Positions 1 through 4,029 are shown, numbered from the stretch's first letter. The stretch is 4,379 bases of DNA from a virus (IMGVR_UViG_648276671_000010:1-4379), one strand, 5' to 3'. Made by a program: numbers and translations. Notes: generated from the letters alone by a model not told the origin.

Positions 1-221
1 CATTTATCGGGTGTCCATAGCGAAGTTCATAGCCAGCCGGTAGCTGGACTTCCCTTGCCTCCAGTTCTGCAATGCGCTTGTCTTTGGCTTCCAGTTCATC
101 AAGAACCGTTTTTTATGGCTGGTGAATGTGTCGCATAACTCGCAGCCGGACCGGCAAGCATTATCCTGAGCTGCGTTTTCGCTTTTTCCGTGTTCATTTG
201 GTTCATTACCTTATTTAGTGG

Positions 222-629
222 CTATATTCCCCAATAGAACGTTAGTATACGCTGCATAACTTCGCTTTCCCGGCACTCGCTACAGATTATGTTCTGACGC
301 CTGTCATAACGACGTATTTCTCCGTCTGGTAATGACCAGATAAGGTCCGGATCAACCACAGATGTTTTTTTCTTCAGCTTTGCCCTTGAGAGTTTTTTGC
401 GGGCATTTTGCCAGTCCTTACGAGCCTGTTCTGACGGGAATAACCCGTAGCCAGAATTGTATACATCGCCACTGGCAACCAGCTCTCTGGCGAGAACACT
501 CATCAGATATCTTGTTGCCCCGGTTTTAGCTTCCAGTTGTCGTAACGTCTCGCGCCCACTCTGGCGTACAAGCTCAACAACCTGCCCTTTAATTTTTTCC
601 CACTCTTCTTGTGTAAAAACTTTTGCCAC
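222..629 (-). CDS. hypothetical prophage protein (135 aa), function unknown; last visible gene of the minus-strand early operon
   Basis: ORF from the six-frame track. GTG start at 629 with GGAGG Shine-Dalgarno (complement of 634-638) 4 nt upstream. Same orientation as, and 40 nt downstream of, the replication-protein gene. No family recognised by eye. Confidence 0.55.
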   Translation of the reverse strand: MAKVFTQEEWEKIKGQVVELVRQSGRETLRQLEAKTGATRYLMSVLARELVASGDVYNSGYGLFPSEQARKDWQNARKKLSRAKLKKKTSVVDPDLIWSLPDGEIRRYDRRQNIICSECRESEVMQRILTFYWGI

Positions 630-669: not shown

Positions 670-1740
670 TTACCCCCTGAAGCCCGGCGGAATTTCGGTA
701 TCCGGTTCAGAAATATGATTCACACAACGCTGGTTGTTCGTGCCGCTTACCGGGAGCAACCAGGGGTTTTCAAAATTCCGGTCCGGTCCAAAAAACGTCG
801 TAGCTCGCTGAACAAATTCCGTTCCCGTTTTCCCTGTAGCCGCCAGGTATCTTGCGTAACGCCTCACGCCATCCAGCATGGCCTCTGGTGGCACCCCCTC
901 GCGTAATCTGGCCTTCCAGGCACTGAAAGCGGATTTCTTCGGGTTTGCCCCGGCACGCAACGGGTACTCCCGCCAGACCTGTTCGAACACATCCGGATAA
1001 TCCACTCGTCCCACAGACTGCCCGGTGCTTTCCGGGACTACCCGATCGGCTTCCCGCTGAATGGCGGAATCGGCTTCAGGCTGTTGCAGTTGGTGTGATT
1101 GCTCCGGCCTTGCGGTCATCACCTGCTGCACAGCGCCCGAATCGGCTTTCAGCGCATACGCTGAATCGGCTTCCGGTGTCGTGCCTGCTGTCTGACCAGG
1201 ATTGACGGTCTGAACATCCCCTGCCTGGTTCGTGGCGTTTTTTACGCCATGGACCATAGTGTTTTGATCTTCTTGATCTGTATCTGTATCTGTATCTTTA
1301 TCTGTCGTGACTCGTCGTGACATGTGCGTGACATTTCGTGACGCGCCGTGACAATCGCCATTTTGTTCCCGCTTTCTTTCCCTCTCTCGCTGCGCCCTCT
1401 TGCGCTCTGCAGGAGATTTTGCGGTTTGCGAAATATTGCCGTTGTCCTCTTTAAGCACCTGGCGTTTTTCCCATCCAGTGATTAAATCACCATCAAGTAC
1501 CCGCCCCTGCATCGTCTGCAAAATTGAATCAATTACCTCTTCTGTCACGTCGAGCGCACTTGCCAAATCTTCTGTCGTGACATCAATGTGACCTCGCGTG
1601 ACATTTCGTGACGCGCTCACCAGGAGGTGGATATACACTGCCATCACTGTTGCAATTGGCTGCCCTGACACCCTGGCAATTGTTCGCCACTTAGGGTCAT
1701 TTGGGATGTCATGCCATAATCTGAGCCAGGCGTTAGCCAT
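670..1740 (-). CDS. phage replication initiator, functional analog of lambda O (YdaU-like): N-terminal region, acidic low-complexity linker (ERKRAQRERERKREQ, KDTDTDTD), C-terminal domain
   Basis: Track ORF is 670..1746 with a GTG at 1746. The in-frame ATG at 1740 has a GAGG SD (complement of 1746-1749) at 5-nt spacing that overlaps the GTG, so the start is placed at 1740 (protein MANAWLRLWHD...). Sits in the O position after the cro-like and cII-position genes and contains phased iterons in its coding sequence. YdaU-like assignment is from memory. Confidence 0.7.
   Translation of the reverse strand: MANAWLRLWHDIPNDPKWRTIARVSGQPIATVMAVYIHLLVSASRNVTRGHIDVTTEDLASALDVTEEVIDSILQTMQGRVLDGDLITGWEKRQVLKEDNGNISQTAKSPAERKRAQRERERKREQNGDCHGASRNVTHMSRRVTTDKDTDTDTDQEDQNTMVHGVKNATNQAGDVQTVNPGQTAGTTPEADSAYALKADSGAVQQVMTARPEQSHQLQQPEADSAIQREADRVVPESTGQSVGRVDYPDVFEQVWREYPLRAGANPKKSAFSAWKARLREGVPPEAMLDGVRRYARYLAATGKTGTEFVQRATTFFGPDRNFENPWLLPVSGTNNQRCVNHISEPDTEIPPGFRG
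1281..1304. repeat. hexanucleotide tandem repeat (TATCTG/TATCTT) x4 inside the replication gene; encodes the DKDTDTDTD linker on the minus strand
   Basis: Direct reading: tatctg tatctg tatctt tatctg at 1281-1304, AT-rich, next to two GATC sites (1266-1269, 1275-1278) and immediately upstream of iteron cluster 1. Confidence 0.8.
1306..1352. repeat. iteron cluster 1: five direct copies of CGTGAC phased at 10-11 bp (putative ori iterons)
   Basis: CGTGAC at 1306, 1316, 1327, 1337 and 1347 on the plus strand; spacing matches the DNA helical repeat. Lies in the linker-coding part of the O-like gene, as lambda ori does within O. Confidence 0.65.
1575..1612. repeat. iteron cluster 2: four direct copies of (C/T)GTGAC phased at 10-11 bp
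   Basis: CGTGAC at 1576, TGTGAC at 1587, CGTGAC at 1597 and 1607. The 21-bp string gcgtgacatttcgtgacgcgc occurs exactly at 1326-1346 and 1596-1616; tctgtcgtgac occurs at 1301-1311 and 1571-1581. Confidence 0.6.
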
Positions 1741-1811
1741 ACTCACCTCTTCTGATACCGAATCTTTTTACTCACGAGTTGCCGGAAGCGATTCGATATG
1801 GCTATTATCAC

Positions 1812-2237
1812 TCAATGCACTGCCACAGCATTTCCTGCCGGGCCACCACGGTTCATCTGATTGAAACCGGCGATTGCCACTGCGACAAAATCATCAGCGT
1901 CTCTCACCAGTCGTTCCCGCGTCTCCACCAGCTCCCGAAAATAGGCTGAACTGTGGCTGCGCATTCGGGCCACCAGCAGAGGTGGCATTGCTTTTTCGAT
2001 CGCTGGTAACAACGCCTGAATTTTTTTAACCGCATCAGGGGTGTCTTTCTCCACCCAGCGGAAAATTTTCTGAGTATTGCGAGCCAGGGCTTCCGGATGG
2101 CTGTCGTCATACAGTTCCGGGAACGTCATTCCCAGCTCGAAATACGCTTTGGTAATTTTCGCAGCCGGTACTTTTTCGCCGTCCGGATGTGCCCAGGCAT
2201 TCATCGCCATGCGGATGTGCTCATGCTTGATTTTCAT
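1812..2237 (-). CDS. ydaT: YdaT-like protein, occupying the cII position of the switch
   Basis: 141-aa track ORF beginning MKIKHEHI. ATG at 2235-2237 overlaps the upstream cro-like stop in an ATGA arrangement (translational coupling); GGGAG SD 7 nt upstream. Family assignment from memory of Rac YdaT; needs blastp. Confidence 0.75.
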   Translation of the reverse strand: MKIKHEHIRMAMNAWAHPDGEKVPAAKITKAYFELGMTFPELYDDSHPEALARNTQKIFRWVEKDTPDAVKKIQALLPAIEKAMPPLLVARMRSHSSAYFRELVETRERLVRDADDFVAVAIAGFNQMNRGGPAGNAVAVH

Positions 2238-2497
2238 GAATCAACTCCCGCAGCTGGTTGTGTGTTAGCCTGATAGTCAACAGGTATGCCATCGGTTGGG
2301 TTGGGGTAAGTATTGCTATCAATCTCGTGCGGGGTCACTACCCACCCTGTTGCTTCACACCAGCGTAAAATTTTTTCCCCCGTAAGTTTCGCCCGTCCAG
2401 TAATGACATGGCTTACCATCCCTTGGGTTGCCCCAACAATTTCAGCAAACTTTTTCTGGGTTATACGGGAATGATGCAAATATTCTCCAAGCTTCAT
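2234..2497 (-). CDS. Cro-like HTH DNA-binding regulator (YdaS-like)
   Basis: Track ORF 2234..2509 (MRRTMKLGEYL...). The internal ATG at 2497 has a GAGG SD (complement of 2503-2506) at 5-nt spacing, whereas the 2509 ATG has none, so the start is placed at 2497 (87 aa). HTH-like motif ITQKKFAEIVGATQGMVSHVITG. First gene transcribed divergently from the repressor. Confidence 0.75.
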   Translation of the reverse strand: MKLGEYLHHSRITQKKFAEIVGATQGMVSHVITGRAKLTGEKILRWCEATGWVVTPHEIDSNTYPNPTDGIPVDYQANTQPAAGVDS

Positions 2498-2527
2498 TGT
2501 TCGCCTCATGTTATGTGATCACGAACA

Positions 2528-2569
2528 TTAATAGCATTGTTATTTTTGAAAGTAAATAGCATCACTATT
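2528..2569 (-). promoter_or_regulatory. PR-like early promoter with two operator sites: site A 2530-2544, site B 2555-2569; -35 TTTACT (complement of 2551-2556), extended -10 TGcTATTAA (complement of 2528-2536)
   Basis: Read on the minus strand: AATAGTGATGCTATT (site B) and AATAACAATGCTATT (site A), centres 25 bp apart, are 7-1-7 inverted repeats sharing a perfect TGCTATT promoter-proximal half. A 17-bp spacer separates the -35 and -10. Predicted start near 2520, about 24 nt before the cro-like ATG. Confidence 0.6.
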
Positions 2570-2604
2570 TCAAAGAGATTAGTAATCTTATTAGAATTGA
2601 AGGT
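2568..2604 (+). promoter_or_regulatory. PRM-like repressor maintenance promoter: -10 TAGAAT 2592-2597, weak -35 near 2569-2574; transcript predicted to start at or next to the ATG (leaderless)
   Basis: TAGAAT ends 7 nt before the ATG at 2605, and no SD sits at usable spacing (AAGG is 1 nt from the ATG). The weak -35 abuts operator site B, whose centre is about -43 from the predicted start. Geometry parallels lambda PRM/OR2. Confidence 0.4.
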
Positions 2605-3104
2605 ATGAAAAGAAAACCCCTGTCAGAGATCGACCTACAAGCAGCCCAGAGACTGAAAGAAATCTGGACGACAAAAAAACTCAACTTGGGTTAACCCAAG
2701 AGCGTGCGGCAGAAATTCTGGGGTTTTCGACACAAGGGGCAGTAAGTCATTACCTAAATGGTCAGACACCTTTAAATCTAGAGGCTGTTATCAAGTTCGC
2801 TGGGTTGCTGCAAGTTCCGCCCGAGTCAATTAGACCAGATATGGCAGACTTGTTACGAATTGTAAGGATGTACCCCCAAGAACCGCAGCAGGATAATGTT
2901 GTCGCTTTACCCGCAGAGATGGAACAATCGGAAAACGAACTTCCGTTTAATATAGAACCTATAGAGCGAGATTTGATCCAGACGTTCAGGGCTTTCCCAA
3001 AAGAAGACAAAGAGAAAATGCTTAAGGAAATGAAGGAGAAAAAAGAATCAATTGAAGAAACCGTTGCGCGGTGGCTAGAGGCGCAAAAAGGTCGTCGCGC
3101 CTAA
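2605..3104 (+). pseudogene. cI-position prophage repressor (XRE/cI-type HTH, PaaR-like, no S24 peptidase domain), interrupted by a 1-nt frameshift in this sequence
   Basis: ATG at 2605 reads MKRKPLSEIDLQAAQRLKEIWTTKKLNLG then TAA at 2692-2694. The HTH continues in the -1 frame (LTQERAAEILGFSTQGAVSHYLNGQTPLNLEAVIKFAGLLQVPPESI...) to the TAA at 3102-3104. Restoring one base in GGGTTAACC gives a 166-aa protein whose N-terminus parallels lambda cI (KKxxLGLSQE). The first canonical start in the downstream frame is TTG 2805, after the HTH. Confidence 0.6.
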
Positions 3105-3121
3105 TCTGAGGAGGTTAGAAC

Positions 3122-3313
3122 ATGAGTACAGCCCTTTCCCCGATAATTTCAGAATTTGAAACAATCGAACAAGAAAACAGCTATAACGAATGGTTACGCA
3201 CCAAAGTGGCAGCAAGCCTCGCAGACCCCTGTCCTGCAATTCCACATGACGAAGTAATGGCTGAAATGGAAAACCTTATTGCTCAAATAGCTTCGACGAA
3301 CAGGAGTGAGTAA
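3122..3313 (+). CDS. type II antitoxin (63 aa), PaaA-like partner of the ParE toxin
   Basis: GAGGAGG SD at 3108-3114, 7 nt before the ATG at 3122. Its stop overlaps the toxin start (TAATG at 3311-3315). Small acidic protein; the motif SEFETIEQENSYNEWLR matches my memory of PaaA2. Starts 17 nt after the repressor stop, so it is co-operonic with the repressor. Confidence 0.75.
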   Translation: MSTALSPIISEFETIEQENSYNEWLRTKVAASLADPCPAIPHDEVMAEMENLIAQIASTNRSE

Positions 3314-3603
3314 TGCTACCCATTTTATGGCTACCTTCTGCGCGTGATGATTTGCGTGAGATTGTGACCTATATTGCCAAAGAAAGCCCTCCCGCTGCAC
3401 GTAGACTAAAAATGCGCATTGAAACATCAGTTTTGTCACTAACTGAGCACCCTTACCTGTATCCACCAAGCGAAAGAGTTCCAGGCCTTCGTGAGATAGT
3501 GACCCATCCTAACTACATAATACTTTACCGAGTAACAGCATCTAACATCGAGATCGTAAATGTAGTTCACACACGAAGGCAGTATCCAAACAAAAGCTGT
3601 TAA
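3313..3603 (+). CDS. parE: type II toxin, ParE/RelE superfamily (ParE-like, 96 aa)
   Basis: AGGAG SD at 3302-3306. Typical ParE/RelE length and motifs (N-terminal LPILWLPSARDDLREIVTYIA; C-terminal GLREIV...YRV...IEIVNVVHTRR). Translationally coupled to the upstream antitoxin. Confidence 0.85.
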   Translation: MLPILWLPSARDDLREIVTYIAKESPPAARRLKMRIETSVLSLTEHPYLYPPSERVPGLREIVTHPNYIILYRVTASNIEIVNVVHTRRQYPNKSC

Positions 3604-3617
3604 TCATTCCTGCCAAC

Positions 3618-3639
3618 AACCACCTTTGGGTGGTTTTTT
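3618..3639 (+). terminator. intrinsic (rho-independent) terminator ending the repressor-antitoxin-toxin operon
   Basis: Stem AACCACC (3618-3624) pairs with GGTGGTT (3629-3635), loop TTTG, followed by a T-run to 3639. Lies 15 nt after the toxin stop. The reverse complement has no trailing T-run, so it is unidirectional. Confidence 0.6.
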
Positions 3640-3658
3640 CTTGCTCTTCAAAAAAAAC

Positions 3659-3700
3659 AATAGCATTGCTATTTACACAACAAAATATCAATGCTATTGT
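3659..3700 (+). promoter_or_regulatory. PL-like early promoter with two operator sites: site C 3659-3673 (perfect AATAGCA-T-TGCTATT), site D 3684-3698 (AATATCA-A-TGCTATT); -35 TTTACA 3672-3677, extended -10 TGcTATTGT 3692-3700
   Basis: Same 15-bp inverted-repeat motif, same 25-bp centre spacing and same overlap with the -35/-10 as at PR. 17-bp spacer. An A-run (3650-3657) lies upstream. Predicted start near 3707. Confidence 0.6.
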
Positions 3701-3876
3701 TCATTCATCAACCCACCCCGCCCCACAGAATGCAGGGCAATACTTCGAGTTACCAGGTAGTGGTCAGGGGTTAAGTAGCCAGCCCGAGGCGTAAGAACAT
3801 GACGGCAGGGTTCAACTTTAACTATGCAGCAGGTTTTTGTTCCGCTACCCCGGCGTTAAGGGGAAATGAGGTCAGC

Positions 3877-4029
3877 ATGGATACTATCGATCTTGGCAAC
3901 AACGAGTCTCTGGTATACGACGTGTTTCCCAACCAGGACGGCACGTTCACGGCGATGACGTATACCAAAAGCAAAACATTTAAAACCGAAGCTGGCGCGC
4001 GTCGCTGGTTAGCCAGAAACACTGACTGA
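3877..4029 (+). CDS. small early-operon protein (50 aa), YdaF-like; alternative in-frame start at 3799 would give 76 aa
   Basis: Track ORF 3799..4029. The internal ATG at 3877 has a GAGG SD (3867-3870) at 6-nt spacing; the ATG at 3799 has GAGG (3786-3789) at 9-nt spacing. The shorter product matches the roughly 50-aa length I remember for the YdaF family. Start uncertain. Confidence 0.5.
   Translation: MDTIDLGNNESLVYDVFPNQDGTFTAMTYTKSKTFKTEAGARRWLARNTD

Follow-up and report, generated by a model that had tools for sequence, protein, structure and literature searches.

The final 4,379 bp of scaffold GL884358.1 (13,405 bp; GCA_000176655.2) from the draft genome of Escherichia coli TA280 correspond exactly to the viral sequence IMGVR_UViG_648276671_000010:1-4379, the whole of which was analysed here and is termed the window. 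It very probably contains the lysis-lysogeny immunity switch of a lambdoid prophage, carrying a paaR-paaA-parE module in which a repressor gene is followed by the genes of an antitoxin and a ParE-type toxin. The switch would be heteroimmune with respect to its characterised counterpart in prophage CP-933P, and the open reading frame (ORF) of its repressor is broken in the draft. Judged by its sequence, the repressor is a lambda-CI-type DNA-binding domain fused to a PaaR/DicA-type tail.

An original prediction, made from the sequence alone, had described cro-like and YdaT-like genes running leftward, a divergent operator region, and a rightward operon of repressor, antitoxin and toxin closed by a terminator. 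Part of that description has been confirmed and the interpretation attached to it is supported. Both leftward genes are present on the minus strand, and the divergent region holds repeated palindromes that overlap or abut its promoters (Table 1). As to the operon, the ORFs of 63 and 96 amino acids (aa) and the terminator were found as described, but the repressor ORF is frameshifted and closes after 29 codons. The module had also been judged probably known rather than new, and this holds: the architecture has already been characterised experimentally for CP-933P (PMC8630535, PMC9986795). A ParE addiction module within a lambdoid repressor operon is thus published and mechanistically dissected, and the window adds no new principle.

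The toxin-antitoxin pair

The two small proteins of the operon belong to well-defined families. The 96-aa protein, predicted to be ParE-like, matches the structure of ParE2 (Protein Data Bank, PDB, entry 5cw7) over residues 1-93 with an E-value of 2.4e-37 and the Pfam family ParE_toxin (PF05016) with 2.6e-18; weaker PDB matches are to 6x0a and 5ceg. The 63-aa protein, for which comparison with PaaA2 had been proposed, matches PaaA2 (PDB 3zbe, 6.4e-22) far beyond chance, together with Pfam PaaA2 (PF21217, 1.2e-20) and NCBIfam NF050103 (2.6e-25). Pfam PaaA2, a toxin-binding family of 33 residues, is the sole domain found in it, and no DNA-binding domain was detected. That ParE2 and PaaA2 are the top matches among solved structures, and that the repressor tail is common to both paralogues in E. 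coli O157:H7, bears out the proposed resemblance to the paaR-paaA-parE modules of that strain.

The toxin-antitoxin (TA) genes overlap in a TAATG, as predicted, with TAA at 3311-3313 and ATG at 3313-3315. Only 17 nt separate the repressor stop from paaA, which has a Shine-Dalgarno sequence of its own (GAGGAGG, 3107-3113), and a promoter scan from the repressor stop to paaA found no promoter-like site. The only intrinsic terminator lies after parE; it comprises a hairpin at 3618-3635, with a 7-bp stem and a 4-nt loop, and a T-rich tail reaching to 3645.

Two loci of O157:H7 serve for comparison. One (L015) is the true paaR2 locus, recognised by a repressor starting MQKKE as published, a 97-bp intergenic region and GTTTAGT repeats. 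The other (L006) is taken to be that of CP-933M, as O157 genomes have exactly two such loci and one of them is that of PaaR2; the second O157 locus has been placed in CP-933M in the literature, and the names PaaA1 and ParE1 are those of Hallez 2010 as cited in PMC4803016. PaaA of the window is 86% identical to that of L006 and 71% identical to PaaA2 of L015, and the corresponding values for ParE are 86% and, for ParE2, 66%. On these sequence identities, the window's pair is a member of the CP-933M (PaaA1/ParE1-like) group. ParE toxicity, neutralisation by the cognate PaaA, lability of the antitoxin to ClpXP and ClpAP, and post-segregational killing are known for the O157 systems only (PMC8630535, PMC4803016), where PaaA1 and PaaA2 do not cross-neutralise (PMC4803016). 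A search with the PADLOC defence models gave zero matches to toxin, antitoxin or repressor, and so lends no support to a catalogued anti-phage system.

The exact PaaA protein of the window is known from three public contigs only, and the exact ParE protein is encoded by two other public contigs only, from ERR4097512 (L005) and SRR024214 (L004). Position 37 of this PaaA (codon 3230-3232) is Cys, within ADPCPAIPH, where every relative examined, including the PaaA2 crystal structures, has Arg.

The repressor

Residues 2-82 of the repressor, read with its frame repaired, align with the N-terminal domain of lambda CI (PDB 1lmb, 1lli and 3bdn, ~1.6e-9), and the Pfam family HTH_3 is matched at 1.5e-9. 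The C-terminal part is of quite different affinity. The last 64 aa are 58% identical to the CP-933M-type repressor and the last 44 aa are 50% identical to PaaR2 of L015, and in each case this is the only part that aligns. Residues 107-162 match positions 75-130 of the NCBIfam DicA model with an E-value of 6e-7, at 29 bits against a cutoff of 101 for the full-length model. The tail that defines the family has been found joined to at least four different N-terminal domains.

Neither Pfam nor NCBIfam detected an S24/LexA-like peptidase domain in the repressor, and RecA-dependent induction is therefore not expected. The same has been noted of PaaR2 (PMC8630535). The role of the PaaR/DicA-type tail is probably oligomerisation; PaaR2 has been shown to octamerise (PMC8630535), which bears on this role. 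A sequence search of the PDB did not find a structure of PaaR2.

It has also been considered that the tail might serve as a docking site for PaaA-ParE. This idea is weakened by a locus that has the tail without a TA pair (L042, described below), by the homology to DicA and by the failure to detect a three-protein complex (PMC4803016).

Predicted operators and promoters

Four 15-bp palindromes of the AATAGCATTGCTATT type (AATAGC-N3-GCTATT) flank the repressor-TA operon, two in the divergent control region and two beyond the parE terminator. A pattern search returns these four sites on both strands (8 matches), a count that none of 200 shuffled sequences reaches. The two pairs are arranged as mirror images, since the OR-like and OL-like pairs lie in a 40-nt inverted repeat (I1) that is 78% complementary. 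The intergenic region measures 95-107 bp, and within it the OR palindromes are 25 bp apart, overlapping the PR-like promoter and abutting the PRM-like promoter. A 13-bp palindrome of unlike sequence occupies the OR3 position in the PRM spacer; relatives retain it, though its centre base varies.

The putative PR-like promoter, serving the cro-like gene and ydaT, mirrors the PL-like promoter inside repeat I1. Transcription from the PRM-like promoter is predicted to start ~7 nt downstream, at the ATG of the repressor (2605), which would give a leaderless repressor mRNA. In CP-933P the leaderless nature of paaR2 mRNA has been shown by 5' RACE (PMC8630535), and the PRM geometry of the window matches.

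The YdaT and Cro/YdaS-like proteins

The product of ydaT matches Pfam YdaT_toxin (1.1e-9), PDB 3c4r (1.6e-89) and the CP-933P YdaT structure 8bt1 (5.7e-81). The Pfam name is historical: YdaT of CP-933P is a non-toxic transcription activator, and the proposal that YdaS and YdaT form a TA pair has been rejected (PMC8630535, PMC9986795). By analogy with the role reported in those papers, the window's YdaT would be a CII-analogue transcription activator and not a toxin. In CP-933P the YdaT site 5'-TTGATTN6AATCAA-3' has been mapped to the end of ydaS (PMC9986795), and the window has a box at the same position, a match found in only one of 200 shuffles. The box may mark the region in which a PRE-like promoter is expected.

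The cro-like protein falls just under the Pfam cutoff for HTH_3 (2.6e-4) and is 91% identical to the annotated 87-aa protein of relatives. Its start is ambiguous. The ORF opens at ATG 2509, giving 91 aa, whereas annotation in relatives begins at the ATG corresponding to 2497, giving 87 aa; a GAGG Shine-Dalgarno sequence read from the sequence lies 6 nt before ATG 2497.

Relation to known immunity regions

In CP-933P (Hallez 2010; Jurenas 2021, PMC8630535), a leaderless mRNA gives rise to PaaR2, the CI analogue, while the part of Cro is taken by YdaS and that of CII by YdaT, which activates a PRE-type promoter. The three genes of the TA module form one operon under PaaR2, YdaS and YdaT; a copy of PL/OL lies beyond parE2, and the locus is bistable and addictive (PMC8630535). 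The suggestion that the regulator doubles as the prophage repressor accords with this description of PaaR2, and placing the TA genes in the slot of rexAB agrees with the CP-933P literature, in which the TA pair replaces rexA-rexB (PMC9986795).

The window resembles CP-933P in gene order and strands, in the families of PaaA and ParE, and in a YdaT with an identical TTGATTN6AATCAA box at the ydaS/ydaT junction. Common to both are also a short divergent operator region, a promoter geometry compatible with leaderless transcription, a second operator and promoter set past parE, a conserved C-terminal repressor tail and the lack of a peptidase domain. The two differ in their repressors and operators. 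PaaR2 is a protein of 123 aa, beginning MQKKE, whose N-terminal domain is unrelated to the lambda-CI-like domain of the 166-aa protein of the window, and the operators of CP-933P are of the GTTTAGTAA type (GTTTAGT repeats), those of the window of the AATAGCATTGCTATT type. As the DNA-binding domain and the operators are both unrelated to those of PaaR2, the window's copy is taken to be a heteroimmune variant. A further difference is the frameshift in the window's repressor ORF.

The CP-933M-type locus has the closest TA pair and the same downstream context of DUF1391 and dicB, but differs in the N-terminal domain of its repressor (a 133-aa protein of the MMSALEV... type), in its Cro-like protein and in its operator region. 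YdaT of the window is 92% identical to that of L006 and 86% identical to that of L015, while the Cro-like protein is 34% and 28% identical, respectively.

With the cI-rexA-rexB region of lambda, the window shares a truly homologous repressor N-terminal domain, divergent PR and PRM, repeated palindromic operators, a mirror-image OL/PL, and accessory genes co-transcribed after the repressor, in the rexAB slot. Lambda CI differs in having an S24/LexA-type autocleavage domain where the window's repressor has the short PaaR/DicA-type tail; the cargo of lambda is RexAB and not a ParE-type TA pair, and lambda CII is unrelated to YdaT. No TA pair is known to follow dicA in the Qin prophage of E. coli K-12. 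DicA occupies the same position as cI (PMC8630535) and shares only the repressor tail with the window. Classical ParD-ParE systems (RK2, Vibrio, Caulobacter) also have a toxin of the ParE fold, and addiction behaviour would be expected of both. In the classical systems, however, a ribbon-helix-helix antitoxin, ParD, autoregulates, whereas PaaA of the window has no such domain and a separate repressor would regulate.

The PaaR family is modular: one conserved tail, together with paaA-parE, goes with four or more different DNA-binding domains and sets of operators, the domain in the window being of genuine lambda-CI type. This modularity fits the published idea that the TA pair travels with recombining immunity regions and may stabilise them.

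The frame break in the repressor gene

In its first frame the repressor gene runs from ATG 2605 to a TAA at 2692-2694, after 29 codons, and the parts encoding the helix-turn-helix (HTH) motif and the C-terminus are open in the -1 frame, as far as the stop at 3102-3104. The break lies at a run of seven A residues (A7), one base short of every relative examined. With that base restored the repressor has 166 aa and shares 99.4% identity with its intact counterpart, equal in length, in relatives. The alignment with lambda CI spans the frameshift site, which confirms that the ancestral gene was read in a single frame.

The contraction from eight A residues (A8) to A7 is, by comparison with related sequences, most likely to reflect an error in the draft assembly, of the homopolymer or indel kind. 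All 70 complete E. coli genomes of the window's immunity type read ACG ACG AAA AAA ACT and encode an intact 166-aa repressor, and the ORF is likewise uninterrupted in 13 of 13 IMG/VR contigs of this type. Over 967 nt, the contig from ERR4097512 departs from the window in a single respect: its tract is A8 (ACG ACA AAA AAA ACT), which puts it in frame. In 5,426 complete E. coli genomes, megablast with a 73-nt query gave no 100% match to the A7 allele, nor was the frameshift allele found by an exact-pattern scan of species-representative genomes, which makes it private to TA280 and SRR024214. Compared with relatives more than 99.8% identical to it, the TA280 scaffold shows about three single-base indels against about one substitution over ~4.3 kb. 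Sequencing or assembly error, and not divergence, leaves indels in such excess over substitutions, so that an artefact is the likely explanation. A second single-nucleotide indel, which breaks the small ORF at the left end of the window, counts on the same side. As a practical caution, what looks like a repressor 'pseudogene' in the TA280 draft most probably reflects an indel error.

It is considerably less likely, though still to be reckoned with, that A7 is real. TA280 would then carry a repressor-null allele of a defective prophage, with the switch locked in the Cro/YdaS-on state and paaA-parE transcribed at a lower level, still holding the region. A8 tracts are natural hot-spots of slippage, which counts in favour of such an allele, as does its occurrence in the Logan assembly of SRR024214 as well as in the NCBI draft. 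That the SRR024214 contig differs from the window over 2,044 nt only at two other homopolymers, T6/T7 in ydaT and A6/A5 near the repressor stop, counts instead on the side of an artefact. The paaR gene has, moreover, the sole frame-breaking coding indel relative to the colinear strain 2013C-4830, and in CP-933P stop mutants of paaR2 survive and go on expressing the TA pair, the RAE2-on subpopulation being all that they lose (PMC8630535). Set against this are the A8 of the otherwise 100% identical ERR4097512 contig, the intact frames of all 70 genomes and 13 viral contigs, and the draft's excess of single-nucleotide indels; a null repressor would also be counter-selected if the prophage were still competent for replication and lysis.

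A functional role for the A-tract is very improbable. It would take the form of -1 frameshifting or transcriptional slippage on A_AAA_AAA, or of a reversible A7/A8 contingency switch for immunity. Read in the frame of the window, the run makes a perfect X_XXY_YYZ heptamer, a -1 slip on which joins frame 0 to the HTH frame and yields exactly the wild-type repressor sequence; a 6-bp hairpin starts 5 nt downstream, and a synonymous ACG-to-ACA change has lengthened G+A7 to A8 in this lineage. Yet all relatives encode the repressor in one frame, so that recoding is not conserved, and the hairpin is weak (z = -1.0 against shuffles) and is the LGLTQ-coding sequence of the intact gene. The A7 and A8 states of the lineage, for their part, are represented by one observation each. 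Programmed -1 frameshifting as the principal explanation is set aside because of the single-frame relatives and the non-significant hairpin. There is similarly little to recommend the more elaborate idea that A8, in the first helix of the repressor, is a slippage-prone contingency site at which A8/A7 switching, with low-level -1 rescue, would toggle immunity reversibly while PaaA-ParE kept the region in place. If true, such switching would add a mutational layer above the known epigenetic bistability of the switch.

Within the repressor coding sequence, positions 2685-2700 form a perfect palindrome of 16 bp, CTTGGGTTAACCCAAG, that includes an HpaI site and is conserved in relatives; it was flagged by a scan as a minus-strand terminator-like hairpin with a T-run.

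Distribution of the module

Homologues of paaA-parE are found in 842 of 5,426 complete E. coli genomes, and the gene order of the window, with an intact 166-aa repressor, in 70-76 of them. Among viral contigs, 73 loci encode the repressor tail, and for 70 of these enough downstream sequence is available for the TA genes to be counted. PaaA and ParE lie directly downstream in 68 of the 70. In the two exceptions the TA pair is partly deleted (L053) or absent (L042). The latter, a metagenomic prophage, encodes at 2294-2695 a 134-aa repressor with a PaaR-type tail, alongside a distant YdaT (54% identical), with no PaaA or ParE downstream, and represents a natural state of the immunity region without a TA pair.

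In some loci paaR-type genes are found in tandem upstream of paaA-parE (L007, 1180-2032; L054-L059), a PaaR2-like protein of 123 aa being accompanied by one of 132 or 153 aa, each with the tail. Most of what a tail-profile search of proteins brought up was short fragments and partial ORFs, and stand-alone tail-only ORFs also exist. Three tail-only proteins of 65-72 aa (P0011, P0012 and P0014), present on up to 110 contigs, bear the annotation 'Cro/CI family transcriptional regulator'; these may be truncated repressors or stand-alone tail proteins. A profile search of genome contigs with the repressor-tail alignment gave no confirmed locus.

Proposed coupling of the toxin-antitoxin pair to the switch

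By analogy with CP-933P, PaaR would act as the CI analogue, and a leaderless transcript of the PRM type would encode it along with PaaA and ParE. PaaR is proposed to bind the paired 15-bp palindromes at OR (2530-2569) and OL (3659-3698), shutting off both the divergent PR, which serves the cro/ydaS-like gene and ydaT, and PL, and modulating its own promoter. Competition from the Cro-like protein for the same region would make the switch bistable, and YdaT, acting at its box (2227-2244), would activate a PRE-type promoter feeding the repressor-TA operon. PaaA would neutralise ParE by direct binding and is expected to be proteolytically labile, as a consequence of which loss of the immunity region would kill or arrest the cell.

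Several considerations weigh against this account. The PR-like promoter was picked by eye and lies below the threshold of the promoter scan. There are only two consensus operators on each side, compared with three to four in CP-933P and lambda. Everything assumed for the TA280 locus about toxicity, neutralisation, operator binding and leaderless translation is carried over from CP-933P. Two assemblies, that of the NCBI draft and that made by Logan from SRR024214, show the A7 allele, and independent reads behind these would favour a real mutation. The broken frame, probably an assembly error, weakens the claim for the sequence of the window but not that for the type of locus.

That the TA pair is instead an ordinary, self-regulated two-gene ParDE module, sitting beside a phage repressor with no functional coupling to it, has very little probability. 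The Shine-Dalgarno sequence of paaA is strong; the PaaA-ParE complex can by itself repress in part and a complex of all three proteins was not detected, according to Hallez 2010 as cited in PMC4803016; and the repressor tail is also found without a TA pair, in L042 and DicA. PaaA matches only the toxin-binding PaaA2 family, however, with no DNA-binding domain, and the absence of a promoter-like site from the 17-nt gap, together with the single terminator after parE, tells against this reading. In CP-933P the genes do form one operon under PaaR2, YdaS and YdaT (PMC8630535), and the tight arrangement is kept in 68 of 70 loci. Regulation of the TA pair by the phage repressor is thus preferred.

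Gene layout and neighbouring genes

The features of the window are listed in Table 1. As annotated, the TA280 scaffold includes PaaA, but the repressor and the intact 96-aa parE are apparently uncalled, and several stretches on the kb scale have no gene call at all.

Table 1. Genes and control elements of the window, with positions counted from its first nucleotide
Feature	Position	Strand	Remarks
Broken small ORF	4..206	-	Left end of window, downstream of DUF977 gene
DUF977 gene	222..629	-	
Replisome-organiser/O-like gene	670..1746	-	
ydaT	1812..2237	-	Pfam, PDB
YdaT box (OM-like)	2227..2244		TTGATTttcatgAATCAA; spans cro stop and ydaT start; exact TTGATTN6AATCAA match
cro/ydaS-like HTH gene	2234..2497	-	87 aa
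Divergent control region	2498..2604		Between cro-like and repressor genes
PR-like promoter (putative)	2528..2556	-	For cro-ydaT; TTTACT (2556-2551), 17-nt spacer, TATTAA (2533-2528)
OR1-like operator	2530..2544		AATAGCATTGTTATT; overlaps PR -10; pattern search; conserved in relatives
OR2-like operator	2555..2569		AATAGCATCACTATT; 25 bp from OR1, abuts PRM -35
PRM-like promoter	2569..2597	+	TTCAAA-17-TAGAAT; promoter scan, 9/12 matches
13-bp palindrome	2576..2588		AGATTAgTAATCT; PRM spacer, OR3 position, sequence unlike operators; single exact occurrence
paaR-like CI-analogue repressor gene, interrupted	2605..3104	+	
A7 run	2673..2679	+	Site of one-base deficit; alignment with relatives
PaaR/DicA-type C-terminal tail	2910..3101	+	Residues 103-166; family-defining segment
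paaA antitoxin gene	3122..3313	+	63 aa
parE toxin gene	3313..3603	+	96 aa
Intrinsic terminator after parE	3618..3645	+	
Second control region (OL/PL-like)	operators 3659..3698		Between terminator and DUF1391 gene
OL-like operator pair	3659..3698		AATAGCATTGCTATT (3659-3673) and AATATCAATGCTATT (3684-3698); pattern search
PL-like promoter	3672..3700	+	TTTACA-17-TATTGT, TG before -10; promoter scan; overlapped by both OL-like palindromes; reads into DUF1391 gene, away from TA pair
DUF1391 gene	3799..4029	+	Pfam DUF1391, 6.5e-27; first gene of PL-like operon
ORF running off right end			After DUF1391 gene

To the right of the switch, the DUF1391 gene is at the same location in all relatives examined. 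At the opposite end, the small ORF has one extra base at ~108, reading AAAAAACGG where at least 28 E. coli genomes have AAAAAAGG, and is thereby split over two frames, which would reflect a further error of the draft or else decay of the gene. The copy of this ORF in relatives is annotated as a partial pseudogene in APEC O1.

The O-like gene contains four iteron-like repeats of TCGTGAC(A/G) (1275-1345 and 1570-1615), a number reached by none of 200 shuffles. A GATACA-type tandem repeat in the same gene encodes DTDTDTD and shows a 6-nt length polymorphism relative to one relative, and the second repeat cluster differs from that of JNEC-KY176 by a 21-nt indel. The repeats probably constitute a replication origin lying inside the initiator gene, as in lambda.

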